DNA of 32,000 bases, from NCBI GenBank assembly GCA_031316235.1, contig JALDRA010000001.1, forward strand, positions 690,001 to 722,000, in the 5' to 3' direction. This DNA comes from Candidatus Scalindua sp. (GTDB lineage: Bacteria; Planctomycetota; Brocadiia; Brocadiales; Scalinduaceae). The position numbers were made by a program, and so were the translations under genes. Under the pieces are notes generated by a model. That model had not been told where the DNA came from and searched no databases. It was given only the letters and a program-made list of their open reading frames with translations. Of the stretch, positions 10,322 through 28,062 are shown one piece after another; positions within the stretch are counted from its first letter, which is position 1, and each line of letters starts with the position of its first letter.

Positions 10322-10395
10322 GCGCCCTTAGCTCAGCCAGGCAGAGCAACTGACTCTTAATCAGTGGGTCGTAGGTTCGATTCCTACAGGGCGCA
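10322..10395 (+). tRNA. tRNA-Lys (anticodon CTT), CCA not encoded
   Basis: Acceptor GCGCCCT/AGGGCGC, anticodon stem ACTGA/TCAGT with loop CTCTTAA, T arm GTAGG TTCGATT CCTAC. Confidence 0.9.
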
Positions 10396-10633
10396 AATCT
10401 TTTTTCTCCCACAATTTACACTTAACTTCCTTACTTTAAAAGGCTTAAATTAGCACAAGCCCCTCACTTCAAATCTGCTAAAACTGTAATAAATGTATCA
10501 ATATGTTACAATTTATAGGCAGAGTATGGGCAAGAAAAACTTCGCAGGCAGAATATGGGCAGAATTTTGCAATCAGTGGATCGTTGACGACCCATAAAAT
10601 GAATCAATCAGTAAGTCGTATATTTTTGGTGAT

Positions 10634-10705
10634 CTTACCTCCTCTTTTTCTTCTTTGATTGTCATAGTTTGTCATATTGACTTTGATTGTATTACTAGAT
10701 AACAT
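10634..10705. promoter_or_regulatory. Divergent regulatory module, copy 1 (minus-strand RBS remnant, TTGTCATA direct repeats, plus-strand TTGACT-17-TAACAT)
   Basis: cttacctcctctttttcttctttgattgtcatagtttgtcatattgacttt is near-identical to 28164-28216 and related to 14335-14416. Confidence 0.6.
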
Positions 10706-10759
10706 GCTTTTTTTCAGGTTATCTATAAACTTATTAATTACTTATTATCCGGAGAAATC

Positions 10760-11392
10760 ATGAAACCAATAGGTATATTATTAATCGTGTTGGGGATAGC
10801 CATGGCAATAGGTAGTGTCTGGCTTTCGCACATAGAGTTGCGTAATACATTTCGTAACGAAATTGCTCAAATTGGCTCTTCTGCTAATACGCCCAATACA
10901 TCAATATCCGCCACTTCCGCAATTACTCAAGCCAGATCTCAACTAATTCAATCTCGCCGCGAACTTGATAGAACCCTCTCTGAATTAAGGTCTGTGAAAA
11001 CAGCAATGGTCGGTTTTTCAAGGCTAATACAACCAAGACCCGGTGAAGATACAAGTAGAGCTCAAGCCGCTGTGAGAAATGCACAAGGTAATCTTGAAGA
11101 ATTGCAGAGACGAGTGGAGGCCATGAATGCTACTGCATTAAGAGCGGAATCTGAAACTCGGGATGTGATCATGCAATATGAAAATGCATTAAATATTGCA
11201 GCGGAAGAGGCACTAAAGAAAAGCTCGCCGAAAACTAATGTAACAACACTCGCACTACCGATTATTGGGGCTCTGGTTAGCGTTACAGGATTAGTATTAA
11301 GCTGGAGAAGCAAAGAGGTAGAAAAACAGAAAACCTTGTTAGAAATTGCTGAATTACGGCAGAAATTAGAAGCAACTGAATCAACCGGATAA
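10760..11392 (+). CDS. Hypothetical membrane protein: N- and C-terminal TM helices flanking a coiled-coil-like region
   Basis: ggagaaatc RBS. MKPIGILLIVLGIAMAIGSVWL at the N-terminus and LALPIIGALVSVTGLVLSW near the C-terminus. The middle is Q/R/E/L-rich. Confidence 0.6.
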   Translation: MKPIGILLIVLGIAMAIGSVWLSHIELRNTFRNEIAQIGSSANTPNTSISATSAITQARSQLIQSRRELDRTLSELRSVKTAMVGFSRLIQPRPGEDTSRAQAAVRNAQGNLEELQRRVEAMNATALRAESETRDVIMQYENALNIAAEEALKKSSPKTNVTTLALPIIGALVSVTGLVLSWRSKEVEKQKTLLEIAELRQKLEATESTG

Positions 11393-11445
11393 CAAAGGGC
11401 TCCAAGGGACGCTTCGCTACGTGCCCCTGAGCCCAGGCGTTAGCC
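11390..11445 (+). terminator. Long imperfect hairpin (REP/terminator-like) at the stop codon of the 210-aa gene
   Basis: taacaaagggctc ... gagcccaggcgtta arms. A related ggctaaca... element lies at about 12955-13015 after the next gene. Confidence 0.3.
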
Positions 11446-11469
11446 ACGAAAAAAAAATCACGACATGTT

Positions 11470-12849
11470 ATGAAAATTAAGAAATCAGAAGGTGTTACAG
11501 CTACAGAAAAATTACTAGCTGATCTATGTGAAAACACTTTCCTTAAATTATGGTCTTACCCTAATCCGTTTAATGACAACCAAGACGAATTGTGTGATTT
11601 GTTGGCTGTTTTCGAAAATCATATATTTATTTTTTTTGATAGAGAGAACCTCACATTACAAAATGAGAGTAAAGAACCAAATGTAATTTGGAATCGATGG
11701 AAGAAAAAAGTAATAGATGCTCAAATTCGAACAGCTAACGGAGTGGAAAGATACATACTTCAATCTAGAAAAATCTTTTTAGATCAAAAAAAAAGCATTC
11801 CTTTACCAATAGAATTTGACGTAAAAAACATTACTATTCACAAAATAATTATCGCCCATGGTGCAAAAGAAGCTTGCAAACAATTTTCTGAAAATAATAT
11901 CTATGGAAGTTTAGCTATTTCATACGGAGAACATACTAAAAAACTTCCATTTCCATTTTTCATAGATCTAGACAAAAGCAATCCTGTACACATTTTTGAT
12001 TCCCATAATTTACTAATAATTTTCTCAGAATTAGATACATTTTCTGACTTTACCACCTACTTAGATGCCAAGATAATGGCTATCAAGAAATACAATGCTT
12101 TGGTCTATTGTGGTGAAGAAGATCTGTTGGCCCATTATTTCATAAATTTTGATAAAGATAACAATCGTCATTATATCGGAACATTGGATGAGGGGGTGAA
12201 TGGTATCATCATCAGAGAAGGTGAGTGGCATGACTTTGTAGATCGCAAAGAGTATAAAGCCAAAAAGAAAGCTGACAAGGAATCCTACCTCTGGGATGAC
12301 ATTATACAGAGAACATGTGGGCATACATTAGATGGAACAATATTAGGTGTGAACACACCCCTGGAAGGGAAAAGCGCAATTCATGAAATGGCAAAGGAAC
12401 CCCGATTTCACAGGCGTTACCTTTCAAGTCACATGATAAAAGCAATCCAATCTTTCCCAGAAAGCAAAGACAAAATAGTCAGAAAAATTTCTTTAATGCC
12501 TTCATTTTTCAAAGGTAAGTCATATCTCTTTCTTCAATTGAAAGTCCAAGGTTTTTCAGAAACATATGAAGAGTACAGGGAAAAGCGGAGAACAATGCTT
12601 GAAATTGCTTGTGGTACTGCGAAGAACAAATTTGAACATTTAGATACTATCGTAGGAATAGCTATTGATGCGCCTAAGTTCTCAAAGACAAATTCAGAAG
12701 ACTTTATCCTGATGAACTGCGCAAACTGGTCTGAAAAAAAAAGAGATTATTATAAAGACCTCAATAGGAATTGGAATTTCTTCGAAACTGATAATTTGTC
12801 AATGCAATACAAAACTACAACCGAATTTCCTCTGGAATCTTCAACATAA
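11470..12849 (+). CDS. Uncharacterised 459-aa protein; possible nuclease-like N-terminal segment; member of a SEC-C-tailed family
   Basis: N-terminal EKLLADLCENTFLKLWSYPNPF...ELCDLLAVFENHIFIFFDRE...WNRWKKKVIDAQ resembles proteins I recall ending in a SEC-C motif. The in-frame SEC-C relic follows (next feature). Confidence 0.65.
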   Translation: MKIKKSEGVTATEKLLADLCENTFLKLWSYPNPFNDNQDELCDLLAVFENHIFIFFDRENLTLQNESKEPNVIWNRWKKKVIDAQIRTANGVERYILQSRKIFLDQKKSIPLPIEFDVKNITIHKIIIAHGAKEACKQFSENNIYGSLAISYGEHTKKLPFPFFIDLDKSNPVHIFDSHNLLIIFSELDTFSDFTTYLDAKIMAIKKYNALVYCGEEDLLAHYFINFDKDNNRHYIGTLDEGVNGIIIREGEWHDFVDRKEYKAKKKADKESYLWDDIIQRTCGHTLDGTILGVNTPLEGKSAIHEMAKEPRFHRRYLSSHMIKAIQSFPESKDKIVRKISLMPSFFKGKSYLFLQLKVQGFSETYEEYREKRRTMLEIACGTAKNKFEHLDTIVGIAIDAPKFSKTNSEDFILMNCANWSEKKRDYYKDLNRNWNFFETDNLSMQYKTTTEFPLESST

Positions 12850-12945
12850 AAAACCAGAATTGGAAAATTTGGAAGAAATTCCCCATGTCCTTGAGGTTCA
12901 GGGAAGAAATATAAAAAGTGTTACAGAAACATTATATATAATTAG
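12850..12945 (+). pseudogene. In-frame relic of a SEC-C metal-binding tail, cut off by TAA (12847) and carrying TGA at a Cys position
   Basis: In the frame of the 459-aa ORF this reads KTRIGKFGRNSPCP*GSGKKYKKCYRNIIYN*, compared with the canonical GRNdPCPCGSGKKYKKCC. Confidence 0.6.
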
Positions 12946-13089
12946 AAAAATAGGCTAACAAAACGTTCCACCGGAAATTTTTTCCGCTGCACTCCAAAGT
13001 TTCTGGTGAACTAAACGAGGGAATAGGGTCAGACCTTGAATATAGAATAATACGAGGGAATAGGGTCAGACCTTGAATATAGAATATGC

Positions 13090-13118
13090 TTGACAAGCAG
13101 GAGTATTAGATCAATAAT
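13090..13118 (+). promoter_or_regulatory. Candidate sigma70 promoter of the element (TTGACA-17-AATAAT)
   Basis: ttgaca agcaggagtattagatc aataat, 9 nt before the ATG at 13127. Conserved in copy 2 (21714-21742). Confidence 0.4.
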
Positions 13119-13126
13119 ATGCCGTT

Positions 13127-14103
13127 ATGGCACGACCCTGGAGAATACAATATGAAGGTGCAATTTATCACGTCATGTCGAGAGGAGTAGGCAGAGGAGA
13201 GATTTTTCTTACCAATGGAGATTATTCAAGATTTATGGAATATATGGCAAGCGTCAGAGAAAAGTTTAATTTAGATATATTTGCATTTGTCTTGATGGCT
13301 AATCATTACCATATTCTTTTAAGAACGAATGATGCAAATCTTTCAAAGGCCATGCAATGGATACAGACCGCCTATAGCATTTATTACAATCGCAATCATA
13401 ATCGCTGTGGACATCTTTTTCAGGGAAGATATAAGAGCGTTCTTGTCGAAAATGAATCTTACTGGCACATTTTAAGTTTATATATACATTTGAATCCCAT
13501 ACGAGCCGGCATGGTTGAAAAGCTGAGAGAGTATAATTGGAGTAGCTATCATGATTATGTTAACGTCAGGAAAAAGAAATAAGTGGGTAAACAGCGAAGC
13601 TGTTTTAGAGGGGATATGTAGTGACAAACAAGAATCCAGGAGGGAATATAGAAAATTGATCCGGAAAGCATCCGGTAGAGAAAATGACTTCCTTGAAGAC
13701 ATAAAGTATGGAATGATTTTGGGAAGCGATAAGTTTGTGGAGTGGGTGCAAAGGAAGTTTATAGACCGAACGGAGAAAGAAGATGCTGACTTACCACAAA
13801 AAAGAGAATAAGTGATGATGGTGTGATCGAAAAGGTAATAGAAGAGATAATACATAATTATAAAATAGACAAGACCACACTACTACAAAGAAAAAGGCAT
13901 ATACCATTTTGAAGCCAGAGATGTAAGTATGTATATATTGAAGACGTATACAGGGGCTATCAAATAAAGTAATAGGTGAGATGTTTGGAGTAAGTATAAG
14001 TGCAGTAAATAAAGCAGCAATACGTATAAATAAGCAGAGTAAAACAAGTAAGGCCTTTAGAAGGAAATTAGAGGAGATTACGCATTCTACTTTCAAGGTC
14101 TGA
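13127..14103 (+). pseudogene. Y1 (HUH) IS200-like/COG1943 transposase fused to a DnaA_C-like HTH; four homopolymer frameshifts
   Basis: HUH = ANHYHILL and Tyr motif LFQGRYKS. Relative to copies 2 and 4 there are indels at about 13566 (A5 vs A4), 13798 (A6 vs A7), 13908 (T4 vs T3) and 13953 (G4 vs G3). Confidence 0.75.
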
Positions 14104-14144
14104 CCCTGGATTTTTTTCAAGGCCTTCAACAGCCTGGAAAGAGT

Positions 14145-14330
14145 CTATTTGCCAGCGAATACGTTATGGTGGAGTATGATATCGCGTATTCCGCCTTGAT
14201 TGACATCGAGTACAACCTTGCCTATATAGTTATTGTTTATCACCTCATGTTTAGTGAGAAGTAAAACGAGCTCTTTTTTTAGATCCTTCTCTCGCTTCCG
14301 GATATCCTCGACCAATCCGTTTTGACTCAT
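14145..14330 (-). CDS. Small protein (61 aa), possibly DUF2292/YezD-like
   Basis: Strong RBS gaggaggtaaggggg. GKVVLDVNQGGIRDIILHHN resembles the YezD beta-hairpin pattern, recalled from memory. A truncated homolog lies at 28089-28163. Confidence 0.45.
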   Translation of the reverse strand: MSQNGLVEDIRKREKDLKKELVLLLTKHEVINNNYIGKVVLDVNQGGIRDIILHHNVFAGK

Positions 14331-14334
14331 CCCC

Positions 14335-14439
14335 CTTACCTCCTCTTTTTTAATGATCCATATGTAACTTAATTATTTTCCATCATCTTCGATTTTCATG
14401 GTTTGTCATATTGACTTTTTAGTAGATTAATGGTAAATC
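14335..14439. promoter_or_regulatory. Divergent regulatory module, copy 2 (TTGACT-17-TAAATC toward 14486; RBS toward 14330)
   Basis: cttcgattttcatggtttgtcatattgactttttag aligns with cttctttgattgtcatagtttgtcatattgactttttat in copy 3. Confidence 0.55.
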
Positions 14440-14485
14440 ATTTACTGGTTATGATCACCACATAATTTCCTTATCGAGAATAAAT

Positions 14486-16018
14486 ATGGCAAGAAAAAAT
14501 GGTAAAAGAAAAAAAAGACAATCCAAAAAAGGAAATTTTACATCAATTGCAAAACACAAACGTTCAGGTAACGTACTAGGTACTGTAGCCTCAGATTTAA
14601 ACATGAAGATAATCGAGTGGGAACGAGATCTAATGCCTGAACATTTATGGCTCGATCTTCTTGCAGATGAATACAAAAAACTACAATGGCATGATATCTA
14701 TAATGAATTCCTCGACAAAATAGATTCCGTTCTCGATGAAGAGCGTAAAACTCCTTTCTTAGGACTTATTTCAGACTTTGGTATTTTGACAGAAAATGAA
14801 AAGAATAAATTTCTTGAACTTCACAAAGATTTCGCTTACAAGTTCTTTTTTTTACCAATCGGTAAATGCCTATCCTTTTATCCAGAAAATCCAGCAAGTT
14901 GGCTTGTACTTGATGAATGGAAAGACAAAGAGTCAATCGATTTTGTAACTGAACTGAATAAATTATCAAGATCTCTTTTGCGCCTCAAGAAAGCAAAAGA
15001 CCTATATGCTGGTAACTTAAGAGCAGTTCCATTAAATCGATTATTTAAACATAATAAATTATTTCTTAAGGCCGGTGTATGTGACGATTTAGCATCTTTA
15101 CTGTCTAAATATCCAGTTAATTGTTCTGAATATGAACAATACCGCGTTCAGCAGTTTGCAAGAAATTCAATAAATCAATTATTTATGATTACTGATCGCT
15201 ATAAATCAAGAAGTTGGCCGAAATATTTTTGGCGTCACAATCTGAACTTGGTTGTCTGTCGTCCCATTGAGGGTTCATTGAGGAAAGGTGACATCAATAA
15301 GGACGAAGAAATAAAAGAATTGCAAGGTCGCTTCTGGGAAAACTGTATCATTCTAATGAAGTATGTCGATAAAATAGGAATGCAATATCGCTATGACCTT
15401 TACAACCCTATTCCAAATGAAATTAAACTTGGTTTATTTTCACGTATAGTAAGGTTATACATTTCATTCATCTCGAATCCTTTTCTTTGGACGCGAGATC
15501 TAGCCGGAATCATGTTACGTTGCATTGGAGAAACGACCATAATATTTTTTTACTTGGTCAATAAAGGATCAGAGGAAGAGATCAAAGCATTTGAAAATTA
15601 TTCGTTAGGTAAAGAAAAAATATTAATGCTCCATATGCAAGATACTCTTCAAGAAAAACGAACGTTAGAGGGAGAATCTATAGAGGATATATCTAACGAA
15701 CTTGGAGGAGACTTTGTTGCAGAAATGCAAAAAATTGACCTTAAGGGATGGACGAAGAAAAATATAAGAGATCTCTCACTAGAAGTTGGTTTGGAAAATA
15801 TATACAGGTGGGTGGTTGACCCCACAAGTGCAGAAATACATGGATCGTGGTCGAGTATAAAAAAATCAAATCTTGTTTTATGTGCGCAAATTCTTCACAG
15901 ATTTCATCGTGTACCAAAGTTCTATGAACCACCTATTTTTTTAGTACCAATTTATGTCGCCACACGAATTTATTGGGAGCATTCCCGATTTTTTGTAAAA
16001 TATAATAAAAGATCTTGA
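14486..16018 (+). CDS. Uncharacterised 510-aa protein with a highly basic N-terminus
   Basis: Long intact ORF starting MARKNGKRKKRQSKKGNF. No catalytic motif recognised. It ends 31 bp before the methyltransferase gene. Confidence 0.65.
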   Translation: MARKNGKRKKRQSKKGNFTSIAKHKRSGNVLGTVASDLNMKIIEWERDLMPEHLWLDLLADEYKKLQWHDIYNEFLDKIDSVLDEERKTPFLGLISDFGILTENEKNKFLELHKDFAYKFFFLPIGKCLSFYPENPASWLVLDEWKDKESIDFVTELNKLSRSLLRLKKAKDLYAGNLRAVPLNRLFKHNKLFLKAGVCDDLASLLSKYPVNCSEYEQYRVQQFARNSINQLFMITDRYKSRSWPKYFWRHNLNLVVCRPIEGSLRKGDINKDEEIKELQGRFWENCIILMKYVDKIGMQYRYDLYNPIPNEIKLGLFSRIVRLYISFISNPFLWTRDLAGIMLRCIGETTIIFFYLVNKGSEEEIKAFENYSLGKEKILMLHMQDTLQEKRTLEGESIEDISNELGGDFVAEMQKIDLKGWTKKNIRDLSLEVGLENIYRWVVDPTSAEIHGSWSSIKKSNLVLCAQILHRFHRVPKFYEPPIFLVPIYVATRIYWEHSRFFVKYNKRS

Positions 16019-16049
16019 CTTCCTCGTTGTTTTCAACGATAATTCTTCC

Positions 16050-16715
16050 ATGAATTATCCAGGCGGCAAAGGAGGTGTATTCCAAAAGTTAATCAATCTT
16101 ATGCCACCCCATGATGTCTACATAGAGACTCATTTGGGTGGTGGCGCTGTTATACGGAACAAACGACCTGCCAGGAGTAATTTTGGGATAGAAATTGACT
16201 CGGAAGTTGTTGAGATGTGGACAAATATGCATCCAATAGGTTTTGAACTGGTCCATGATGACGCAATTAATTATCTGAATAATTATCATTTCACAGGAAA
16301 AGAACTGGTATATTGTGACCCACCATATCTTCGCGAGACAAGGAAAAAGTATGGACGGCTATATAAATATGACTATAGCCGTGCGCAGCACATCGAACTT
16401 TTGGAAGTTTTGAAAACTCTTCCCTGCATGGTGATGATATCCGGTTACGAGTCAACCTTATACAAAGAATCATTGCGTAGCTGGCAGACACATTCTTTTC
16501 AGGCCGTCTGTCATCATGGCGTAGCAACGGAGTGGTTATGGATGAACTATAGTGTTCCGGTAGGACTGCACGACTATCGTTATCTTGGCAATAACTTTCG
16601 TGAGCGGGAACGGATAAAGAGGAAGACCAAAAGGTGGACAGCGAAACTTAAATCCATGCCTGTATTAGAACGTCAGGCGTTACTATTCGCCATAGATGTA
16701 TTCAGGGAGCGATAG
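16050..16715 (+). CDS. Compact D12-class-like N6-adenine DNA methyltransferase
   Basis: NYPGGKGGVF, ETHLGGGAV (FxGxG-like) and CDPPYL motifs. Unusually, DPPY lies only about 55 aa after motif I, and the C-terminus is basic (FRERERIKRKTKRW). Confidence 0.8.
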   Translation: MNYPGGKGGVFQKLINLMPPHDVYIETHLGGGAVIRNKRPARSNFGIEIDSEVVEMWTNMHPIGFELVHDDAINYLNNYHFTGKELVYCDPPYLRETRKKYGRLYKYDYSRAQHIELLEVLKTLPCMVMISGYESTLYKESLRSWQTHSFQAVCHHGVATEWLWMNYSVPVGLHDYRYLGNNFRERERIKRKTKRWTAKLKSMPVLERQALLFAIDVFRER

Positions 16716-16738: not shown

Positions 16739-18157
16739 TTGACTTGTGTGGTGAAAAGAAAGATAGAGTCATCCGATAACTGGAGAGCTTTATTTTATGG
16801 TTTTTTAGACACCCGATTGGATAAGATTGAGGAAGAGTACTCAATGGAAGATTTAGGAGAAATCTCAAAAGCTGTTTTCGAAGAGAGAGCGGAGATATTA
16901 GGACAACTGATTCTTGGGTTCATAGAGAGGAAATTTGGACATTTATTGAATCAGCAAAGCTGCGATTGCCCCGAATGCGGCAAGGGTATGCAAAGACAAG
17001 GAAAACAATCCAAGACTATCCAAACCCTTGCCGGACAATTTGAATTAACCAGGCCTTATTTTTATTGCAGAGCGTGTCGTTTAGGATACTATCCTTTAGA
17101 CGAAGCCCTTGGATTGTCTGAATCATCGAAGCAATATGATGTGCAAGATGTGGAAGCCTGGTTGTCAAGCGAAACGGCCTATGAGACGGCCAGCGAAACC
17201 TACGAGAGAATAACCGGAGTAAAGCTGAGTGAACATCATATGCATGAGACCACGAATGCCATTGGTCAAGAAGTGGGAATTTTGGATGTCTGCCCGCCCA
17301 GGGAAGAGATTGATAAGCAGATAGAAAACCTCTCAGTGGATAAGTTTCGTCGTCCCATTATGATGCTTGCCCTGGATGGAGCCCACGGGCCGATGCGTCC
17401 CGAGCCAAGTCCTCACCCCCGTAAAGGGAAAAGAGGCAAGGGAGAATACAAAGAGATTAAAGGTTTTAGACTGTATCTCATCGATGGTCAAACTATTATT
17501 CATTTAATTAGCTGGCACCAGGTTTGTGCAGATCACGAATTAGCAGAATACTTGGTTAAGATCAAAGAAGCCGGGCTTATTCCCCACGAGAAGATACGCC
17601 TGGGAATTATAGGAGACGGTGCTCCCTGGATCTGGAACCGATGTAAAGAAATATTTCCCTCGGCAAAAGAGATTCTCGACTATTACCATTGCTCGGAGTA
17701 TGTCCATGGTGTAGCCAATGCCCATTACGGAAAAGAGACAAGAGAGTCTCTACAGTGGTGTGAGGCGACTCTGACAAGAATATATTATGGTTACCATGAA
17801 GAGGTGCTTGGCGGTCTTGGAAAGATGAAAGCCCGAACTCAAGATATTCAAGATAAAATTGACAAGTTTTATACCTATCTCACAAATCATTGTGAAAAGA
17901 TGGATTACAGTTCCGCCAAGCGTGGAGGATATCACATTGGCAGCGGTGCTATTGAAAGCGCCAATAAATTCATTAGCCATACAAGGCTTAAACGATCAGG
18001 AGCTTGGTGGTATATCCAAAACGCTAATAACATACTCAAGATCAGATGCGCGAAATATAACGGTACTTACGATAAAGTTATCGAAAAATACAAAAGGGAC
18101 GACCAGGAAAGAATTAAAAATAAAAAATTTAAGAGAAGTCTTCGAATTGTTAAATAA
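16739..18157 (+). CDS. ISKra4-family DDE transposase
   Basis: Zn-ribbon CDCPECG...YFYCRACRLGYYPLDEALGL, then LDGAHGP, IIGDGAPWIWN and ILDYYHCSEY. Confidence 0.8.
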   Translation: MTCVVKRKIESSDNWRALFYGFLDTRLDKIEEEYSMEDLGEISKAVFEERAEILGQLILGFIERKFGHLLNQQSCDCPECGKGMQRQGKQSKTIQTLAGQFELTRPYFYCRACRLGYYPLDEALGLSESSKQYDVQDVEAWLSSETAYETASETYERITGVKLSEHHMHETTNAIGQEVGILDVCPPREEIDKQIENLSVDKFRRPIMMLALDGAHGPMRPEPSPHPRKGKRGKGEYKEIKGFRLYLIDGQTIIHLISWHQVCADHELAEYLVKIKEAGLIPHEKIRLGIIGDGAPWIWNRCKEIFPSAKEILDYYHCSEYVHGVANAHYGKETRESLQWCEATLTRIYYGYHEEVLGGLGKMKARTQDIQDKIDKFYTYLTNHCEKMDYSSAKRGGYHIGSGAIESANKFISHTRLKRSGAWWYIQNANNILKIRCAKYNGTYDKVIEKYKRDDQERIKNKKFKRSLRIVK

Positions 18158-18468: not shown

Positions 18469-19971
18469 TTAATAACTATGTAATGTTTCTTCCTGAATGC
18501 CAAAAGCATCAAAAATAATTTTCTGCCTTTTAGATAATTCGCTGAGAATTGGATCGTTTTTCTCTATATGAGTAATCTTTAATTTCTTGAGTTCGGCAAA
18601 TAATTCTTTTACCGTGTATTTGTTAAATAACTTTTTTTTCTTCATAACTCTTGATGCTTCCGCATAGATAATTAACGCAACAAATTTTATAAATAAGCGG
18701 CCGTCGGTATTATATTGACTATGTGCTCGCAACCTATCTCCATTCATTTCATTTTTGAATATATCAAACATTTTTTCAACCTGATCTTTTTGGCGATAAA
18801 GATTTAATACTTCAACTTTATCCATTTGTTGTCTGTTTGTTAGTAACACAAAACTCCCCATTTTATAAAGAAATGATTTCACCTTTTTTACATTTTTTTC
18901 TATCCGCAATGTCGTTTTATTCCATTTGAAATACTCTCTATACTTTTCGGGAATATTTAATTTCCTATATTTCAGGTATTCCTTAAGCGCTTTAAATTTT
19001 TTATCCTTAAACGTCTCTTCATATTCGAATAATACTGAGAAAAAACGGTGTTTCTGTTCTACTTCAGATTTTTCATTGAAAAACATATGTGCGTCAAATT
19101 TATTTCCATCAAATTCAAAATGGCTTTGTTGGTAATGCAGTATCTCTTCGTTGAATTTAAAGGCGCTTGAAAGATCTGACAACAATCGTTTATTCTTTTT
19201 TATTAAAGTCTTTACTTTTTTTAAGCTAAAAGGTAGTGGCTGTACGAACGACACTTTGCTTTTACTGTTATTCATTTCCAATACATTTGCTTTGCTAAAG
19301 AAACCTCTATCAAGCACAAATAAAATATCTTTTAGATTGAACACTTTTAAATACTCAACGCAGTTCTTTAAGGTGGTAACATCTACAATGCTTCCAGGGT
19401 ATAAATTGTAATAAATGGGCAAAGAGTGATTGTGACAAAATGTTACTCCCATATTTAATTGAGGCAGATTTTCTTTATCACGATTATAGCCCCATTCTAT
19501 AAAATCAACGTTTGTAGAGTAGCTGGAAATAGAAGTTATATCGTAAAATATCCCGCTGATGGGTTTTAAATGTTCTATCCATTTTTGAACAAACTCTACC
19601 CTTTGTGTTTGCGATCTTCCCAAAATATCACACAGCTTTGATATCTCAGGAGAATACATCTTTTTGACTCTTGGCAAATTATGTTCATCAAGCCAATAAG
19701 GAAAAAGATACAAGGCCGAGGCCTCAATAATTTCATAAAATGCTAATGCTAATATCTCTTGGTAGTTGCCAGGAAAGAGAGATTTTAAAATCTCCGTCAA
19801 TCCAAGCTTGTCTGATAAAAATCTTAGCAAAAAGACATTACCGTATCCTTTTGAGACCAAGCTGGAATGGATTTGCTTGGTTTTTCCCTTATTAGCGTTC
19901 CGTTTTGGACCGATATAAGTTCTTCGTTGACGTGGTTGCTTTTTTGCTTTATCCCAGTAACTTTCTACCAC
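18469..19971 (-). CDS. IS1634-family (IS4-like) DDE transposase, N-terminus degenerate
   Basis: VVESYWDKAKKQPRQRRTYIG, LDRGFFSKANV and VLLTN motifs. The frame stays open to 20043 with no canonical start upstream of the GTG at 19971. Confidence 0.8.
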   Translation of the reverse strand: MVESYWDKAKKQPRQRRTYIGPKRNANKGKTKQIHSSLVSKGYGNVFLLRFLSDKLGLTEILKSLFPGNYQEILALAFYEIIEASALYLFPYWLDEHNLPRVKKMYSPEISKLCDILGRSQTQRVEFVQKWIEHLKPISGIFYDITSISSYSTNVDFIEWGYNRDKENLPQLNMGVTFCHNHSLPIYYNLYPGSIVDVTTLKNCVEYLKVFNLKDILFVLDRGFFSKANVLEMNNSKSKVSFVQPLPFSLKKVKTLIKKNKRLLSDLSSAFKFNEEILHYQQSHFEFDGNKFDAHMFFNEKSEVEQKHRFFSVLFEYEETFKDKKFKALKEYLKYRKLNIPEKYREYFKWNKTTLRIEKNVKKVKSFLYKMGSFVLLTNRQQMDKVEVLNLYRQKDQVEKMFDIFKNEMNGDRLRAHSQYNTDGRLFIKFVALIIYAEASRVMKKKKLFNKYTVKELFAELKKLKITHIEKNDPILSELSKRQKIIFDAFGIQEETLHSY

Positions 19972-20045
19972 TACAGCGACATTTTTTTCTTGCGCCTTTT
20001 GAGCGAATCGGTTAAACTCGTACCCATAGAGTGCAGGAGGACTTT

Positions 20046-21677
20046 ATGGGTAAGCCACCTGAAGGCCGCAGGCTTGTCATTCGAGGCCGGGAAATAAGCG
20101 AAGCGGATATAGCCGTTGTACGTGGTTTGATAGAGCACTATGGCAACCGAGGCCGGGTATATATCTCTATCAAGTTGTCAGAACATTGGCAATGGAAACA
20201 AGCTAACGGACATCTAAAAGATCGTGCATGCCGTAGTATACTGCAATCGTTGTCCGAGAGAGGGCTTATCCAACTGCCTGCTTCCAAAAGGGCACCATCA
20301 TGCAAAAACGAACGTCCGTTAGAACATGTGAGGTTGGATACCACAGAAATCAAGGGAAACATAAAGGTGTTTCTTCCGTTAAAGATAAAGAGCGTAACGG
20401 ATAAAGAAAGTGGCCGCATATGGAAGTACGTCAATAGAAGATATCACTATTTGGGCTATCGAGTATTAGTAGGGCAGAACATAAGGTATTTAATATACAG
20501 CTCTGATCGATTAGTGGCGGCACTGGGCTGGCAATCCGCAGTAGAGCGGTTATATTGCAGGGACATTATCATAGGCTGGAATGTGCAGGAGCGCAGAAAG
20601 GCTTTAGACAAAGTACTAAACAATAGTCGCTTTCTGATCATGCCATGGGTAGAGGTAAAAAATATTGCATCACATATTTTATCACGAGTTGTCCGACAAT
20701 TGCAGAAAGATTGGGTAGAGAAGTATGGCACCCGATTATTATTTCTGGAAACATTTATCGATCCATCAAAATTTTCAGGAACGTGTTATCAGGCAGCTAA
20801 CTGGGTAAAAATTGGCAACACGAAGGGCTATCGTAAAAAGCAGAAAGGATTTATATACCATGGAAACAGCAAGGAGGTTTATTTTTATGTATTAGATCCA
20901 CAAGGCAGACAAAAGATTAAACAAGACAAAACAGAACCATTACTTACCCGAAAGTATCTCCTTTCAAACAGACCTTACAGCAATCTGCCATTGGAAAGGA
21001 GAAGCAGTATGATAGTACGTCCCCCGGACTGGAGTCCTGAAGTAGAACCCGGAGTTGAATTGAGTGCAAGCGATATCGGAAAGCTTGCAACAGAGTTGGA
21101 GAAGTATCACGCATTGTTTGAGGAGGGATTCAGACGGAAAGAGCAGAAAGATTTGAGCTTGTGCTATTTGCAGGGTTTATTAAGTAAGCTTGATCGTAAA
21201 TCGATAGAGCCAATAGCACTTCGACTCCGAGGTAAAGATACAGTACGAAGCTTGCAACGGTTCATGGGAGAGTACAAGTGGGATGGAGAGTTTATCGCTT
21301 CACGGCACAAAGAGGAGCTCTCAAAACTATTGTCCGAAGCTGATGGAGTACTCAGTGTTGATAGTAGCGAAGTGGTGAAAAAAGGAAAGGAATCGGTGGG
21401 AGTAGCTCGCCAATATTGTGGCCGTCTTGGTAAAATAGAAAATTGTCAGTCTGGAGTGTATGTGGCATATACGAGTACGAAGGGGTATGGATTGATAGAC
21501 CGCCGGCTGTATGTGCCTGAAAAGTGGTTTGACCCTGAGTATAAAGAGAGACGTGAAAGATGCAAAGTGCCTAAAAATTTGGTATTCAAGAAGAAACCGG
21601 AACTTGCCGTTGAGATGATTGCTGAATTGAGTAAGAGCGGGCTGTTCCCATTTCGTTGGATAACGTGTGATAGTACA
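20046..21677 (+). pseudogene. DUF4338 (DruA-like) domain fused in frame to an IS701-type DDE transposase; truncated by insertion of Y1-element copy 2
   Basis: RYHYLGYR..GQNIRYL, NNSRFLIMPWVEVKNIASHIL and ETFIDPSKFSGTCYQAANW recall DUF4338. LCYLQGLL..RKSIEPIA and ARQYCGRLGKIENCQSG recall IS701. The homology ends at WITCDS, where the element terminus gggaatagggtcagacc begins. The ATG at 20046 follows aggagg. Confidence 0.7.
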
Positions 21678-22538
21678 CAGGGAATAGGGTCAGACCTTGA
21701 ATGTAGAATATGTTTGACAAGCAGGAGTATTAGATTAATATTATGCACTATGGCACGGCCCTGGAGAATACAATATGAAGGTGCAATTTATCACGTCATG
21801 TCGAGAGGAGTAGGCGGAGGAGAGATTTTTCTTACCAATGACGATTATTCAAGATTTTTGGAATATATGGCAAGCGCCAGAGAAAAGTTTAATTTAGATC
21901 TATTTGCATTTGTCTTGATGGCTAATCATTACCATATTCTTTTAAGAACGAATGATGCAAATCTTTCAAGGGCCATGCAATGGATACAGACCGCCTATAG
22001 CATTTATTACAATCGCAATCATAATCGCTGTGGACATCTTTTTCAGGGAAGATATAAGAGCGTTCTTGTCGAAAATGAATCTTACTGGCACATTTTAAGT
22101 TTATATATACATTTGAATCCCATACGAGCCGGCATGGTTGAAAAGCTGGAAGAGTATAATTGGAGCAGTTATCATGATTATGTTAACGTCAGGAAAAGAA
22201 ATAAGTGGGTAAACAGCGAAGCTGTTTTAGAGGGGATATGTAGTGACAAACAAGAATCCAGGAGGGAATATAGAAAATTGATCCGGAAAGCATCCGGTAG
22301 AGAAAATGACTTTAAAGAAAAAGGCATATACCATTTGAAGCCAGAGATGTAAGTATGTATATATTGAAGACGTATACAGGGCTATCAAATAAAGTAATAG
22401 GAGAGATGTTTGGAGTAAGTATAAGTGCAGTAAATAAAGCAGCAATACGTATAAATAAGCAGAGTAAAACAAGTAAGGCCTTCAGAAGGAAATTAGAGGA
22501 GATTACGCATTCTGCTTTCAAGGTCTGACCTTGGATTT
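21678..22538 (+). mobile_element. Y1/HUH-transposase element, copy 2 (internal deletion of about 230 bp)
   Basis: Termini agggtcagaccttgaa (21686-21701) and ttcaaggtctgacctt (22517-22532). The right flank has tandem ccttggattta x2. Confidence 0.7.
21750..22352 (+). pseudogene. Y1 transposase, N-terminal domain intact, middle deleted, HTH out of frame
   Basis: MARPWRIQYEGAIYHVMSRG...ANHYHILL...QGRYKS. The junction gaaaatgactt|taaagaaaaaggcatatacc skips the LEDIKYG...LLQRK segment present in copies 1 and 4. It is read as part of the 773-aa chimeric ORF in the track. Confidence 0.75.
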
Positions 22539-22663: not shown

Positions 22664-24118
22664 ATGAATTTTTCAAATACTTACGCATGTTTGAATGAAG
22701 TTTTTTACGAGAAAACACGTCCTACACGTGTTCTGGACCCACACCTTTTTTTGTGGAATTCCAGCTTAGCTGAACAGCTAATGATTCCAGATGAACTGAA
22801 AAATGACCCGGTTGCTTTGGCACAAGTTTTCTCAGGAAACCACATTATGCCCGGATCAGAACCCATTGCAACTGTCTATGCAGGACACCAGTTTGGCAAC
22901 TTTGTTCCCCAACTTGGAGACGGAAGAGCACATCTACTCGGAGAAGTGCTCGATCGATTCGGTCAAAGGTGGGACATTCAACTGAAAGGTTCCGGTCCGA
23001 CCTTATTTTCCAGAGGAATGGATGGCCGTTGTGCTATTGGCCCAGCTGTTCGAGAGTTCATAATGAGTGAGGCCATGAGTGCTTTAGGTGTTCCGACAAC
23101 GCGTTGTTTGGCAGTTGTCACTACGGGTGAACCGGTTTTCCGTGAAACTCCATTACCAGAAGCTATCGTGACACGAGTTGCTTCAAGTCATTTGCGTATT
23201 GGTACTTTTCAGTTCTTTGCGGCTCAAGGTGATCATCAAGCCCTCAAGACTCTGTGTAGTTATACGATTGAACGTCACTATCCAGAGTTGCAGGAAGAGG
23301 GACCGAATCAATATATTCTGTTTATCGATAAGGTTATCGAAAGAGTGATTCAACTTGTCGTTGAGTGGATGAGGGTCGGGTTTATTCACGGTGTCATGAA
23401 TACGGACAACATATCTATTTCCGGAGAAACCATCGACTATGGCCCTTGTGCCATGATGGGGACCTATGATCCGCAGACCGTTTATAGTTCGATTGATACT
23501 ATGGGACGATATGCTTTTGGCAAACAGCCTGGAATTGCACAATGGAACATAGAACGATTCATCGAATGTCTGTTACCACTCATTAACGCTGACACGAATA
23601 AAGCAATAGATCGGGTCGGACCTATTATTACAGAGTTTCCTAACCGGTTTGAGCAAGTATATATGAAAATGATAGGAAAGAAGCTTGGACTGGCATCTTT
23701 TCAACAAGAGGATCAGAAACTTATATTTTCTATTCTGGACCAACTCAAGAAGAGGAGGTTAGACTATACTGTCACTTTCGATCTCTTGACAAAATCATTG
23801 ATGTCTGAAGCTGCAACTTCTCAGATGAAGAGTGAACTAGGGGAGTGTTTTGACTTTTGGAAAAAGCGATTAAACGAGCAAGACGCAACTTCTCAAGAGG
23901 TGCAAGAACTTATGAGAAAACACAATCCTGTGGTAATCCCGAGGAACCATCATGTCGAAGCAGTAATTCAAGAGTGTGAGCAGACCGGTGATGTTACGTT
24001 GGTCAAGAAATTTCTCAAAGTACTTCGATCTCCTTATGAAGAGCTGGAACAAACATCCCAGTATCAAGACTTGCCGAGTGATGGCGATAAGGATTATCAA
24101 ACTTTCTGTGGAACATGA
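22664..24118 (+). CDS. selO: Protein adenylyltransferase SelO (YdiU/UPF0061 pseudokinase-fold AMPylase)
   Basis: [42 protein letters not shown] and [22 protein letters not shown] are hallmark SelO motifs. Confidence 0.9.
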
Positions 24119-24197
24119 AACACATCTTTTTTTTTACACTTGCTGCAGAGTTCCAAGCACCTCATTCAAACGTTAGCCATTAATAAATGAGTTGAAT

Positions 24198-24626
24198 ATG
24201 ATTTTTCATAAACTTGACAAACATCGTGATAAAGGCCTTCTCATTTTGAGGGTTGGCATTGGTATAATGTTTATGTGTCATGGTTTTCCTAAACTAACAG
24301 CAGGGCAGGAAGTATGGACAAAGCTTGGTGGAGCATTATCAGCCGTGGGTATAAACTTTGCTCCTGCTTTTATGGGTTTTATGGCAGCTATCTCTGAATT
24401 TGGAGGTGGTTTATTGCTAGTGCTGGGGCTATTTACGCGCCCTGCGTGCTTATTTTTGTTAAGCACAATGGTTGTAGCCACGCTAATGCATGTAAAAAAT
24501 GGTGATCCATTTATAAAGTACTCTCATGCCCTTGAGTCAGCTATCCTTTTTTTCAGTCTTTTGTTTATTGGTCCTGGTAAAATTTCATTAGATGAGAAAT
24601 TATTTAAAAACAAAGAAAATACCTAA
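24198..24626 (+). CDS. DoxX-family membrane protein
   Basis: LLILRVGIGIMFMCHGFPKL plus three further TM segments. ATG at 24198 preferred over TTG at 24192. Confidence 0.75.
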   Translation: MIFHKLDKHRDKGLLILRVGIGIMFMCHGFPKLTAGQEVWTKLGGALSAVGINFAPAFMGFMAAISEFGGGLLLVLGLFTRPACLFLLSTMVVATLMHVKNGDPFIKYSHALESAILFFSLLFIGPGKISLDEKLFKNKENT

Positions 24627-24704
24627 CGAATGAATGAAGCGGACAAGCAATGCTTGCCACTCATCTTAACGTTCGGTAGAGATAAATACAAAAGGACATG
24701 TAGC

Positions 24705-24881
24705 ATGAGTAAATCTACTAAAATAGAAGAACTAACATCACATGAAGTGAGCCAACTGCTTACTAATAAGAAATTTTCTAAGTTGAAACCTTCAAGCTGC
24801 AATCTATGTGGAGAAAAAAAAGGGTTTTTAAGAAGAATATTTGAGGTCTACGGAGTGGCTTGGTTTAGCGGTAATTGTTAA
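24705..24881 (+). CDS. Possible small hypothetical protein (58 aa)
   Basis: Internal ATG of ORF 24630..24881, preceded by aaagga. No motif recognised; may be spurious. Confidence 0.25.
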   Translation: MSKSTKIEELTSHEVSQLLTNKKFSKLKPSSCNLCGEKKGFLRRIFEVYGVAWFSGNC

Positions 24882-24919
24882 GCGTCACAGCTTGTCAGGG
24901 ACAATCAAAAACAAAAAAT

Positions 24920-25855
24920 ATGAATAACGAAACATCAAAAAACAATCCGCTTCTATGCGACCCTGAAACGGGAATTTGCGAAATTCCAAGCAATGAAGCA
25001 AAAGATTCAACCGCTAAAATTGTTCAATCTACCGAGAAACGAGTACGGGTGGTTTACTTTACCGACCCAATTTGTTCAGCTTGTTGGGGTATTGAGCCAC
25101 AATTGAGAAAACTGAAATTAGAATATGGACAACATATTGACATTGAATACAGAATGGGCGGCTTGTTGCCCGATTGGAATTACAATAGTGGCGGAATTAG
25201 CAAACCATCAGATGTAGCTCAACATTGGGACGAAGTGAGTATTCACTATGATATGCCCATAGATGGTGATGTATGGTTTGAAGACCCGCTCAATTCGTCT
25301 TATCCACCTTCTATCGCTTTTAAGGCAGCACAATTACAAGACGAAAACAAAGCCTTCTTGTTTATGAGAGAAATTCGTGAAATGGTGTTTTTGAAGAAGA
25401 AAAATATTGCCAAATGGGAGCATTTGGCAACTGCTGCTAAAAATGTAGGACTTAATGTTGAGCAATTGAAAACTGATTATGAAGGAAAGGCAAAAACACT
25501 ATTTGAAGAAGATTTAAGAATAGCCAGAGAATTCGGTGTAAGAGGATTTCCAACTATTTTCTTTCTAGATAATGCTGGTAATAAAGAGATAGTTTATGGA
25601 TCAAAACCTTATGCTTTTTACGAAACAGCCATTTTAAAACTTAATTCTACTATTACGAAAAGTGAATACAGTAAAAATTGGGAAACACTCTTCTCAAAAT
25701 ATCATTCGCTCACAGCAAAAGAGTTTTCTGAACTTTCAGGAACACCAAGAAACGAAAGTGAAAATTTATTGAATGGGCTTTCCGACAATGGAACATTGGA
25801 AAAATTGACAACAAAGAATGGAGCAATTTGGAAACGAAAGAATACCAGCCGCTAA
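24920..25855 (+). CDS. DsbA-family thioredoxin-fold protein (YjbH/SpxH-like architecture)
   Basis: VVYFTDPICSACWGIEPQL (CxxC) and GVRGFPTIFF motifs. Start moved to MNNETSK. Confidence 0.75.
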   Translation: MNNETSKNNPLLCDPETGICEIPSNEAKDSTAKIVQSTEKRVRVVYFTDPICSACWGIEPQLRKLKLEYGQHIDIEYRMGGLLPDWNYNSGGISKPSDVAQHWDEVSIHYDMPIDGDVWFEDPLNSSYPPSIAFKAAQLQDENKAFLFMREIREMVFLKKKNIAKWEHLATAAKNVGLNVEQLKTDYEGKAKTLFEEDLRIAREFGVRGFPTIFFLDNAGNKEIVYGSKPYAFYETAILKLNSTITKSEYSKNWETLFSKYHSLTAKEFSELSGTPRNESENLLNGLSDNGTLEKLTTKNGAIWKRKNTSR

Positions 25856-25933
25856 CAATGTATAAAAATATTAGCAGCTTTGGTGCGTAATCAAAGTCGT
25901 TTTTCTTATATTTACAACGGTTCTAATCGGAAA

Positions 25934-26217
25934 CATCCAGAAGGGAATATAGAAAGTTGATCCGGAAAGCATCCGGCAGAGAAAATGACTACAAAGAAAA
26001 AGGCATATACCATTTGAAGCCAGAGATGTAAGTATGTATATATTGAAGACGTATACAGGGCGATCAAATAGAGCAATAGGAGAGATGTTTGGAGTAAGTA
26101 TAAGTGCAGTAAATAAAGCAGCAATACGTATAAATAAGCAAAGTAAAACAAGTAAAGCCTTTAGAAGGAAATTAGAGGAGATTACGCATTCTACTTTCAA
26201 GGTCTGACCCTGGATTT
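25934..26217 (+). mobile_element. Y1-element copy 3: 5'-truncated fragment sharing the internal deletion of copy 2
   Basis: Similarity starts near atccagaagggaatatagaaa. The junction aatgact|acaaagaaaaagg is at the same site as in copy 2. Ends ttcaaggtctgaccctggatttt. Confidence 0.65.
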
Positions 26218-26220
26218 TCA

Positions 26221-26796
26221 TTGGAGTAGCTATCATGATTATGTTAACGTCAGGAAAAGAAATAAGTGGGTAAACAGCGAAGCTGTTTTAGAGGGGATAT
26301 GTAGTGACAAACAAGAATCCAGGAGGGAATATAGAAAATTGATTCGGAAAGCATCCGGCAGAGAAAATGACTTCCTTGAAGACATAAAGTATGGAATGAT
26401 TTTGGGAAGCGATAAGTTTGTGGAGTGGGTGCAAAGGAAGTTTATAGACCGAACGGAGAAAGAAGATGCTGACTTACCACAAAAAAAGAGAATAAGTGAT
26501 GATGGTGTGATCGAAAAGGTAATAGAAGAGATAATACATAATTATAAAATAGACAAGACCACACTACTACAAAGAAAAAGGCATATACCATTTGAAGCCA
26601 GAGATGTAAGTATGTATATATTGAAGACGTATACAGGGCTATCAAATAAAGCAATAGGAGAGATGTTTGGAGTAAGTATAAGTGCAGTAAATAAAGCAGC
26701 AATACGTATAAATAAGCAAAGTAAAACAAGTAAGGCCTTTAGAAGGAAATTAGAGGAGATTACGCATTCTGCTTTCAAGGTCTGACCCTGGATTTA
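26221..26796 (+). mobile_element. Y1-element copy 4: 5'-truncated, undeleted 3' half, abutting copy 3
   Basis: Starts mid-gene at ttggagtagctatcatg (equivalent to 13538 of copy 1). ORF 26339..26785 encodes the intact DnaA_C-like HTH tail (RKRHIPFEARDVSMYILKTYTGLSNKAIGEMFGVSISAVNKA). Tandem ctggattta x2 at the end. Confidence 0.65.
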
Positions 26797-27030
26797 CTGG
26801 ATTTATCAGGAGAGAGGCTAAAGTATTAGAGGATTTCAGTACAGACCAAGCCGAGGATAGTAACCGTATTGATAACTAAAACATCAAGCCACTGCATAAA
26901 TGAGAAGAGCGTGAGTGGAAGTAATATAGGCTGCGAATACGATGTTTTCTGGTGACCAGGAGTGCAAAAGTGAGATAGGGTGAAAATATAGTGAAATTAG
27001 TATTCGACAGTAAATTTTTATTATTTGTGC

Positions 27031-27195
27031 AACATTGTCCGGTTAGGTTTTTGCGTAGGCGGCTTTTGTCATACCCGAACGCCTTTATCGGGTATCCAGA
27101 GACCCGTTTCATCATAGATTCCCGCTAAAAACATGCGGGAATGACAGTTTTGGGACAATAAAGTAAATACGCAAAAACCTAACCGGACACTACTG
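27031..27195. repeat. MITE family 2, copy 1, with about 11-bp target-site duplication
   Basis: Near-perfect TIRs (19 of 21 positions) gtccggttaggtttttgcgta / tacgcaaaaacctaaccggac. Internal cccgctaaaaacatgcggg hairpin. attatttgtgc flanks both sides (27020-27030 and 27196-27206). Confidence 0.8.
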
Positions 27196-27321
27196 ATTAT
27201 TTGTGCAACTTCTTGTTTTTTAACTGACTTTTGTCACTGTTTGTTATGAAAAACACATCCTGTAATCCATTCGCTATTTTTCACTTGTTTGTTAGAATCT
27301 TTTTGAATAAAATTACATCCT

Positions 27322-27546
27322 ATGACTAAACTCTTAGAAAAAGCATTCAGCCAAGCCTCAAAACTACCAGAATCATCTCAGGATGCCATTGCGGCAATCA
27401 TATTGGAAGAATTAAAAGATGAAAAGAAATGGAAAACAGCATTTGCCAATTCTCAGGATTCACTTTCGAAACTTGCAGCAGAAGTTCGCAATGAGTCTGA
27501 AAAAGGAAAAACGCTCCCATTTGATCCTGCCTCCAGGAAAAAATGA
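27322..27546 (+). CDS. Type II antitoxin (partner of the ParE/RelE-like toxin)
   Basis: 74 aa, LPESSQDAIAAIILEELKDEKKW pattern. ATGA overlap with the downstream toxin gene. Confidence 0.65.
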   Translation: MTKLLEKAFSQASKLPESSQDAIAAIILEELKDEKKWKTAFANSQDSLSKLAAEVRNESEKGKTLPFDPASRKK

Positions 27547-27812
27547 TCTCCCACACAACAAAAGAGTTTTGGTCACTCTTTGATTTACTTCCAGAAGCAA
27601 TCCAGAACCAGGCCATTAAAGCATATAAAGCGTGGAATAACAATCCCAACCACCCAAGTCTCCATTTTAAATCCATTCACAGCAAAGAACCTCTCTATTC
27701 TATTCGTATTAGCCGTGGCTATCGAGCACTTGGGTTAAAGGAAAGCAACACTATTACGTGGTTCTGGATTGGTTCGCATTCAGAATATGAGAAACTCATT
27801 TCCAGGTTTTAG
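27543..27812 (+). CDS. ParE/RelE-superfamily type II toxin
   Basis: 89 aa; HPSLHFKSI...YSIRISRGYRALGLKE.NTITWFWIGSHSEYEKL is the typical C-terminal pattern of this toxin group. Confidence 0.7.
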   Translation: MISHTTKEFWSLFDLLPEAIQNQAIKAYKAWNNNPNHPSLHFKSIHSKEPLYSIRISRGYRALGLKESNTITWFWIGSHSEYEKLISRF

Positions 27813-28036
27813 CTGAGTATTGTGTTTAGTGAGTTTAAGTTAATTCATGATTCTCAAGGTGAAAAAGATCAAATCTACTGTAGTCAAATTGTAGTCAACT
27901 CCAGCGGAATCAGCCAGAAACCACAGGAATCAACAGGAAAAGTAATAAGTTATAACTCGTTTTATAGTTAAATGATAGCGATATAACAGACACAATATCA
28001 GGCACTTATATATTTTGTTAAAAATGTCCTTTATAC

Positions 28037-28062
28037 GACTCTTAATCAGTGGGTCGTAGGTT
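28037..28062 (+). repeat. 26-bp direct repeat of the tRNA-Lys internal segment (candidate att site)
   Basis: gactcttaatcagtgggtcgtaggtt is identical to 10352-10377. Confidence 0.8.

Follow-up and report, generated by a model that had tools for sequence, protein, structure and literature searches.

Islands integrated into tRNA genes (tDNAs) reportedly include an anticodon-loop class, described by Williams in 2002 in a work found among the references of Islander. Cis-mobilizable elements (CIMEs) are remnants that have no integrase gene and are still flanked by att sites, and elements may accrete into tandem arrays at one att site, as exemplified by the ICESt elements of Streptococcus thermophilus. 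Anticodon-loop sites are the commonest sublocation class in Islander (Hudson et al. 2015, PMC4383910). A locus of this kind is described here in Candidatus Scalindua sp. (assembly GCA_031316235.1, contig JALDRA010000001.1). The DNA analysed, hereafter the window, spans 32,000 nucleotides (positions 690,001 to 722,000 of the forward strand, numbered from 1). The interval 10352-28062, delimited by two copies of a 26-bp sequence, the first of which lies within the tRNA-Lys(CTT) gene, is probably what is left, without an integrase and no longer mobile, of one or several integrative elements inserted at an anticodon-loop site of this tRNA gene. The coordinates of the features mentioned below are collected in Table 1.

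The 26-mer GACTCTTAATCAGTGGGTCGTAGGTT is found twice in the window, exactly and on the same strand, and no third copy was detected there, even allowing three mismatches. The count expected by chance from sequence shuffles is 0. The proximal copy starts with the last two nucleotides of the 5' anticodon stem, two nucleotides before the anticodon loop (10354-10360). Its final base, at 10377, is the second of the T-loop. Sequences flanking the two copies diverge immediately on both sides. The 26-mer was absent from the viral contig collection. The GC content of the island is 0.379, versus 0.427 in the left flank.

The distal copy is preceded by a conserved arm, denoted P, and by an antitoxin/ParE-like toxin pair. 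The P arm is 77% identical over about 180-205 bp, direct-repeat motifs included, to sequences found in three metagenome contigs (L038, L040 and L043), where the tRNA fragment runs on as a complete tRNA-Lys 3' half. Relatives sharing the P arm have a full 44-nt block of identity reaching the tRNA 3' end, versus 26 nt in the window. Two additional contigs, L055 and L057, match the window from 27276 to 28038 (toxin-antitoxin (TA) pair plus P arm; 76% identity over 760 bp), and the homology stops at the left edge of the 26-mer, where the 3' end of a transfer-messenger RNA (tmRNA) follows (Rfam E = 4e-5; at about 990-1036 in L055). Since the same module joins either tRNA-Lys or tmRNA, the TA pair and the P arm together make up the conserved right end of an element family having a target-specific core. 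The exchange of tRNA-Lys for tmRNA precisely at this point indicates that members of a single element family have switched targets. Arm and core meet at the left edge of the 26-mer, and the distal copy is a genuine attR-type junction.

Metagenomes were also scanned with the initial 20 nt of the 26-mer, on condition that the base before them be one impossible at that position in a true tRNA. The scan returned 21 loci, three of them real tRNAs and 18 fragments located behind non-tRNA DNA. The left edge common to these fragments is imposed by the scan pattern, and is hence no independent evidence. Their left flanks are varied, as fits anticodon-loop integration. Truncation within the T-loop is unique to the window among relatives with the same P arm; the metagenome fragments L032 and L042 also end early, so that breakage of this sort recurs. 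The distal 26-mer is followed, in order, by 26 bp that could be assigned to no feature, the 24-codon remnant of a small open reading frame (ORF), a copy of a repeat called D6, and a cation-efflux (cation diffusion facilitator, CDF) gene. The original prediction had described an exact direct repeat, tRNA-derived at its distal end, that stops before the tRNA 3' end and is followed there by DNA that is not tRNA-like. All of this stands: the match is not fortuitous, and elsewhere the P arm abuts a complete tRNA-Lys 3' half or the tmRNA 3' end.

Simulated recombination between the two 26-mers deletes the last 18 nt of the tRNA, and ARAGORN finds no tRNA-Lys in the product. Because recombination would remove the tRNA 3' end, the 26-mers should be unusable for precise excision, and the island would now be fixed in place, immobile via these repeats. 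Its integrase is missing, as had been predicted. Pfam identified no recombinase domain in the ORFs of 100 aa or more located between about 9700 and 32000, and tblastn searches of the window with nine tyrosine integrases (one a short fragment), one serine recombinase and one excisionase taken from related loci returned only noise. A damaged integrase gene was found in L002, one of three Scalindua metagenome-assembled genomes (L002, L003 and L004) used for comparison. It is cut at about 250 of about 340 aa, and adjoins sequence homologous to window 10555-10683. A full-length relative, 52% identical, is encoded in L027, a Thermodesulfovibrionales prophage, where some 95 bp separate it from an arginine tRNA 3' half. 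By this comparison, L002 would fit an integrase-next-to-attR layout damaged by deletion. Scanning the metagenomes with the L002 integrase yielded nothing.

The left flank of the island is core DNA. The NusG-like protein encoded by the window is 94%, 93% and 81% identical to those of L002, L003 and L004, respectively, which places the DNA in Candidatus Scalindua, and DNA synteny with these genomes extends from position 1 of the window to 10395-10430, ending at the 3' end of tRNA-Lys. Downstream of this tRNA, L002 carries LPD29, Lcl_C and hemerythrin genes along with the truncated integrase, L003 an ankyrin gene and phage-tail-like genes, L004 tetratricopeptide repeat genes and others. The same NusG - tRNA-Arg - tRNA-Lys locus is found in a more distant Scalindua contig, L054, where an integrase gene and an HTH_17 excisionase gene follow directly, and a second integrase/excisionase pair is located further downstream. 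Because the cargo found after the tRNA differs in each related genome, tRNA-Lys(CTT) is regarded as an integration hotspot, and the anchoring of the island at this gene, advanced in the original prediction, is corroborated.

The 150-200 bp that follow the tRNA have the same architecture in four genomes, with direct repeats that are genome-specific; the repeat of the window is GGCAGARTATGGGCA, present twice. This tRNA-proximal segment, the putative P' arm, looks like the arm of related elements on sequence grounds. L004 has the same type of arm repeat beside the tRNA, and its TA pair is 96% identical at the DNA level to that of the window, versus about 78% for core DNA. As both arm repeat and TA pair are shared, the two ends of the window interval can be linked to a single type of element. 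In L004 the toxin gene contains a stop codon, one more sign of decay. The L004 tRNA-Lys (8615-8688) features an acceptor-stem mismatch, G3:A70, and a different variable loop, and would look like a chimera in which the 5' half is chromosomal and the 3' half was supplied by an element. The mismatch supports the view that 3' halves are element-derived.

Two weaker look-alikes of the core, already pointed out near 10571 and 10606, do exist next to this arm: AATCAGTGGATCGT at 10571-10584 has one mismatch to the 14-mer, AATCAGTAAGTCGT at 10606-10619 two mismatches. The segment hosting them, site X, was considered as an old attR. The proposal was discarded, since the alignment with L004 and L002 makes site X more likely a feature of the tRNA-proximal arm. 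The L002 counterpart of site X is separated from the tRNA by a newer element and a deletion.

Elements closely resembling each other occupy different targets in this group. Nearly the same element is found at tRNA-Lys(CTT) in L054 (5820-6994) and at tRNA-Pro(GGG) in the three contigs L051-L053 (5821-6995). It includes integrase and HTH_17 excisionase genes, two other genes, a TA pair and a gene encoding 1558 aa. The integrase ORF runs antisense through the tRNA 3' end in both L054 and L051-L053, and the protein C-terminus reads ...GFEPST/GFEPAT. Identity between the L054 integrase and those of L046 and L048 is 65%, the latter two being located on the other side of the core.

Two short-read contigs from run SRR28338161, L001 (window 7723-10371) and L017 (28187-30162), are 100% identical to the window. 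L001 breaks one base before a T/A difference in the T-stem of tRNA-Lys, L017 inside the 39-bp D6 repeat. The run therefore holds the window strain and at least one other tRNA-Lys allele. The end of L001 at 10371 was also considered as a population polymorphism, a reading that was rejected: any other species in the sample would be enough to interrupt a k=31 assembly at this point, and the break is uninformative because Scalindua tRNA-Lys genes are all identical up to that base.

The following series of events would produce this arrangement. A tyrosine integrase would have exchanged strands in, or beside, the anticodon loop. The element would have supplied a new tRNA 3' half, so that attL would coincide with the intact tRNA gene, and the displaced 3' half would have stayed at the far end behind the P arm, as attR. 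The distal 26-mer would represent the remains of the displaced half, the last 18 nt and the DNA that followed having plausibly been lost in a later rearrangement. The latter would have joined the fragment to a broken small ORF, to the promoter-like D6 repeat and to the CDF gene. Integrase and excisionase genes would have been lost, and the interior would have been invaded by insertion sequences (IS), by Y1 elements of the REP (repetitive extragenic palindromic) type and by a miniature inverted-repeat transposable element (MITE). The latest large difference from the nearest genome falls at the 39-bp D6 repeats, not at the 26-mers. The later decay evoked in the original prediction is needed to explain why the repeat is truncated.

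Some observations weigh against this scheme. The T-stem of tRNA-Lys(CTT) reads GTAGG/CCTAC in the window, versus GAAGG/CCTTC in relatives. Both copies of the 26-mer have the rare T (10372 and 28057), and the compensating CCTAC is present in the tRNA. The GTAGG allele was found in no relative and in none of the 18 metagenome fragments, which carry GAAGG or other variants. A displaced native 3' half carrying T would not be expected if the native allele was A, as in the relatives. Furthermore, no motif of at least 9 nt is common to the tRNA-proximal arm and the P arm; the two share only a short AATCAG-like element, and need not derive from a single integrated element. Searches of the 0.8-1.5 kb around the P arm detected an integrase in none of the relatives. 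To the right of the repeat, the flank cannot be shown to be core, the CDF gene being the only piece in common with L002. Lastly, the empty tRNA-Lys site that the original prediction proposed to look for was found in none of the relatives compared, and insertion in this lineage is something that we infer.

The allele distribution may find an explanation in a tandem array, in which the distal site would consist of the P arm of a newer element, the core, and the P' side of an older element, the latter starting at D6-CDF and running past the window. This reading is compatible with the decayed remnant proposed above, which it refines, and was anticipated by the original prediction. Both 3' halves would be element-derived in an array of elements of the same family, and the presence of GTAGG in both 26-mers weakly favours it. 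D6-CDF is found also in L002 directly distal to the end of a newer element, beside the truncated integrase of that element, and two integrase/excisionase pairs follow the same tRNA in L054. The variable region moreover reaches at least position 32000. Matches between 29083 and 32000 and L002/L018 or other relatives are restricted to MITE-like repeats; because synteny is missing throughout this segment, the variable region exceeds 10352-28062, and its true right end falls outside the window. On the other hand, the DNA to the right of the distal core has neither a tRNA 3' half nor a P' arm, and truncation must be assumed whichever of the two readings is adopted. One tRNA-Lys fragment and no integrase were found in the window, and neither a further fragment nor an integrase occurs in 28063-32000. 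We regard the array as a tentative refinement, which might well not hold.

The CDF gene was considered as a core flank, a status that is not clearly warranted given its identity across phyla and its polymorphic junctions elsewhere. The encoded protein (204 aa) is 82-90% identical to homologs from Scalindua, Omnitrophota, Fermentibacteria, Thiolapillus and other Gammaproteobacteria, which suggests horizontal spread of the gene. The upstream junction varies elsewhere and has no D6, an IS3 transposase being found at this position in one contig and contig breaks in others. To the right of CDF, a second TA-like pair (a Gp49/HigB-like gene and an HI1420-downstream antidote, 29228-29788) has no counterpart in L002.

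D6 sequences are composed of TTGTCAT-AGT-TTGTCAT, followed by TTGACT, a 17-nt spacer and a -10-like hexamer (TAACAT in the first window copy), and are conserved over about 40-60 bp. The window has three copies (10659, 14393 and 28191), as do L002/L018, in a single orientation, each upstream of a different gene. The first and third copies of the window are identical over 39 bp, a length exceeding that of the 26-mer, but several positions differ in the middle copy and in the L002 orthologue. D6 has been found with four different left/right partner combinations. One L002 stretch (1150 to 158) corresponds to window 10555-10683 joined to window 28163-29083, each segment being 88% identical, and the switch falls inside D6. 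The 17.5-kb difference from L002, the nearest available genome, is therefore bounded by D6, not by the 26-mers. It could be either an insertion in the window or a deletion by D6 x D6 recombination in the L002 lineage. The view of 10352-28062 as a bounded block thus holds in part: the 26-mers are real, but D6 bounds the difference from L002 and the variable region passes 28062. The 39-bp repeat and the open right boundary had both been overlooked in the original prediction, as had the ordinary-looking genes inside the island.

These data raise the question of whether homologous, Campbell-type recombination at D6 moved the 17.5-kb block, the 26-mer and the P arm being a passenger relic. The contiguity of the two segments in L002 at 88% identity, which is the level of core genes, the perfect match of the two window copies against the divergence of the others, and the number of copies and partner combinations all speak for it. 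Yet the event may have been either a gain in the window or a D6 x D6 deletion on the L002 side, and D6 recombination gives no account of a P arm and a tRNA-Lys fragment lying 17.7 kb from tRNA-Lys in direct orientation, as integration predicts. As a substitute for integration at the tRNA, we consider it unlikely.

Other features of D6 deserve mention. The TTGTCAT-AGT-TTGTCAT tract is a Pho-box-like 10-bp direct repeat, and D6 resembles, at the sequence level, a promoter overlapped by a response-regulator box. The Shine-Dalgarno-like sequence CTTACCTCC precedes four of the copies on the opposite strand. The L018 copies are located at 2955-2977, 9958-9980 and 10875-10897, another site lies in L003 (about 8293-8358), and D6 has been seen only inside the variable region. 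An integron-like cassette array finds no correspondence here, as there is no integrase, and D6 is a promoter-like direct repeat rather than an attC-type hairpin. It is conceivable, as a rather bold conjecture, that D6 provides portable homology, or a dedicated recombination site, for swapping gene modules in the tDNA islands of Scalindua. If so, D6 would be a cassette-exchange system working without an integron integrase, and the 17.5-kb block its latest product.

The 26-mers might alternatively form the functional att pair of a non-autonomous, CIME-like element mobilised in trans by an integrase from another place in the genome. The P arm and the repeats are well conserved, and other Scalindua carry integrases targeting tRNA-Lys(CTT). 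This seems very improbable, as recombination deletes the last 18 nt of the tRNA, leaving none that ARAGORN recognises as tRNA-Lys, and relatives having the same P arm keep the full 44-nt block of identity. The reading of the repeat as fortuitous, or as a dispersed sequence having nothing to do with integration, has only the conservation of tRNA sequences in its favour, and is practically dismissed by the shuffles, by the conserved left arm and by the exact end of homology at the left edge of the 26-mer in contigs where the target is another.

Table 1. Features of the Scalindua tRNA-Lys(CTT) island and adjacent DNA, in window coordinates
Feature	Position	Strand	Remarks
tRNA-Arg(TCG)	10119-10195	+	ARAGORN and Rfam; core left flank; syntenic in L002-L005 and L054
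tRNA-Lys(CTT), intact, attL side	10322-10395	+	ARAGORN and Rfam (Rfam score 70.8 bits)
Proximal 26-mer, inside tRNA-Lys(CTT)	10352-10377	+	Exact match
tRNA-proximal arm, putative P' arm	10396-10561	+	Direct repeats GGCAGAGTATGGGCA (10518-10532), GGCAGAATATGGGCA (10547-10561)
Site X, two core look-alikes	10568-10621	+	88% identical to L002 sequence between truncated integrase and D6-CDF
D6 copy 1	10632-10709	+	39-bp exact repeat 10646-10684
Two cargo genes (210-aa membrane/coiled-coil protein, 459-aa protein)	10760-12849	+	
REP-associated Y1 transposase element, copy A	13055-14113	+	Full length
61-aa small ORF	14145-14330	-	Divergent from D6 copy 2; paralogue of truncated ORF beside distal 26-mer
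D6 copy 2	14383-14443	+	
DUF5677/DitA-like protein	14486-16018	+	
D12/Dam-like DNA methyltransferase	16050-16715	+	
ISKra4 transposase	16739-18157	+	
IS1634 transposase	18469-19971	-	
IS701 transposase, DruA-like N-terminus	20031 onward	+	Interrupted by Y1 copy B
Y1 element, copy B	21679-22538	+	196-bp internal deletion; in-frame fusion into IS701 ORF
SelO, DoxX, 83-aa ORF, Thioredoxin_5/DsbA-like gene	22664-25855	+	Ordinary-looking genes
Y1 element, partial copy C	25935-26218	+	
Y1 element, partial copy D	26220-26795	+	
441-bp insertion with MITE-like inverted-repeat element (27022-27223)	26881-27321		Absent from L004
Antitoxin (74 aa) and ParE-like toxin (89 aa)	27322-27812	+	Right-end module; 96% identical to L004, 76-81% to L051-L058
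Conserved P arm	27857-28036	+	Direct repeats TGTAGTCAA (27879, 27890), GGAATCARC (27906, 27926)
Distal 26-mer, tRNA part of attR-type junction	28037-28062	+	Exact match; cut in T-loop
Truncated 24-codon paralogue of 61-aa small ORF	28089-28163	-	Paralogy to 14145-14330
D6 copy 3	28163-28241	+	39-bp exact repeat 28178-28216
Cation-efflux (CDF) gene	28315-28935	+	Only piece right of repeat common to L002, 88% DNA identity

The cargo of the island is heterogeneous. Three IS transposases, four Y1 copies, a TA pair and a methyltransferase are present as stated in the original prediction; the interval also includes the ordinary-looking SelO, DoxX and DsbA-like genes. The block including these genes is bracketed by Y1 copies (21679-22538 and 25935-26795). 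Its GC content is about 0.43-0.44 over SelO, above that of the neighbouring cargo, and drops again toward the right end of the block. A chimeric ORF of 773 aa (20031-22352) starts as an IS701 transposase, with a DruA/DUF4338-like N-terminal domain, and reads into the Y1 transposase. In PADLOC, the DUF5677 protein has a match to DitA, a component of the Aditi defence system (E = 3e-25), and the gene that follows encodes a Dam-like methyltransferase, not DitB. On the basis of these similarities, the pair (14486-16715) may represent defence cargo. No match to the 61-aa small ORF was found in Pfam, NCBIfam or PADLOC.

An imperfect 9-bp duplication (ATAACTAAA / ATGACTAAA) frames the 441-bp insert that precedes the antitoxin gene. 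The MITE-like element hosted by this insert has the terminal inverted repeat TGTCCGGTTAGGTTTTTGCGTA and inverted repeats at 27036-27057 and 27168-27189. Related copies are located in the window (30599-30790) and in L004 (1248-1408, 8252-8412 and 10747-10915). A second family of short, dispersed inverted repeats (TATACTGAAACCGATTTGGTTTT...) is intergenic (3133-3482, 5585-5722, 7619-7751 and 30788-30957), and is found both in the left flank, which is core, and close to the right end of the window, as well as in L002, L003 and L004.

As a decayed and mosaic island at tRNA-Lys, the locus belongs to a well-known kind, and its novelty lies only in being an instance from Scalindua. Integrase-less islands invaded by IS elements are common, and a result of this type is expected. 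To our knowledge, Scalindua has no isolates, and mobile elements have been little annotated in this group. The data document tRNA-Lys(CTT) as an integration hotspot in these marine anammox bacteria, and define a conserved right-end module, TA pair plus P arm, that is joined to tRNA-Lys or to tmRNA depending on the genome. The region should be annotated as a degenerate island, not as an active element.

Like Islander-type anticodon-loop islands, the island has an intact tRNA at one end and, at the other, a directly oriented tRNA 3'-half fragment that starts at the anticodon loop, which is a canonical crossover sublocation. The cargo is variable, and the site is occupied differently in relatives. 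Unlike those islands, which have an integrase inside, this one has none, its fragment ends in the T-loop after only 26 nt, and variability extends to the right flank. As in CIMEs and accretion arrays, element ends are kept while the recombination module is gone, autonomous relatives use the same site, and more than one layer of insertion is suggested. In contrast with CIMEs, the attR is damaged, mobilisation in trans would break the tRNA, and no autonomous partner is visible. The L054 element, with its twin at tRNA-Pro in L051-L053, lies at the same NusG - tRNA-Arg - tRNA-Lys locus and encodes a homologous antitoxin/ParE pair (81% DNA identity); it differs in keeping integrase and HTH_17 excisionase genes beside the tRNA, in the internal position of the TA pair, and in the rest of the cargo, which is unrelated. 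The tmRNA elements of L055 and L057 have the same TA and P-arm module as the window, joined to a core that is the tmRNA 3' end rather than tRNA-Lys.

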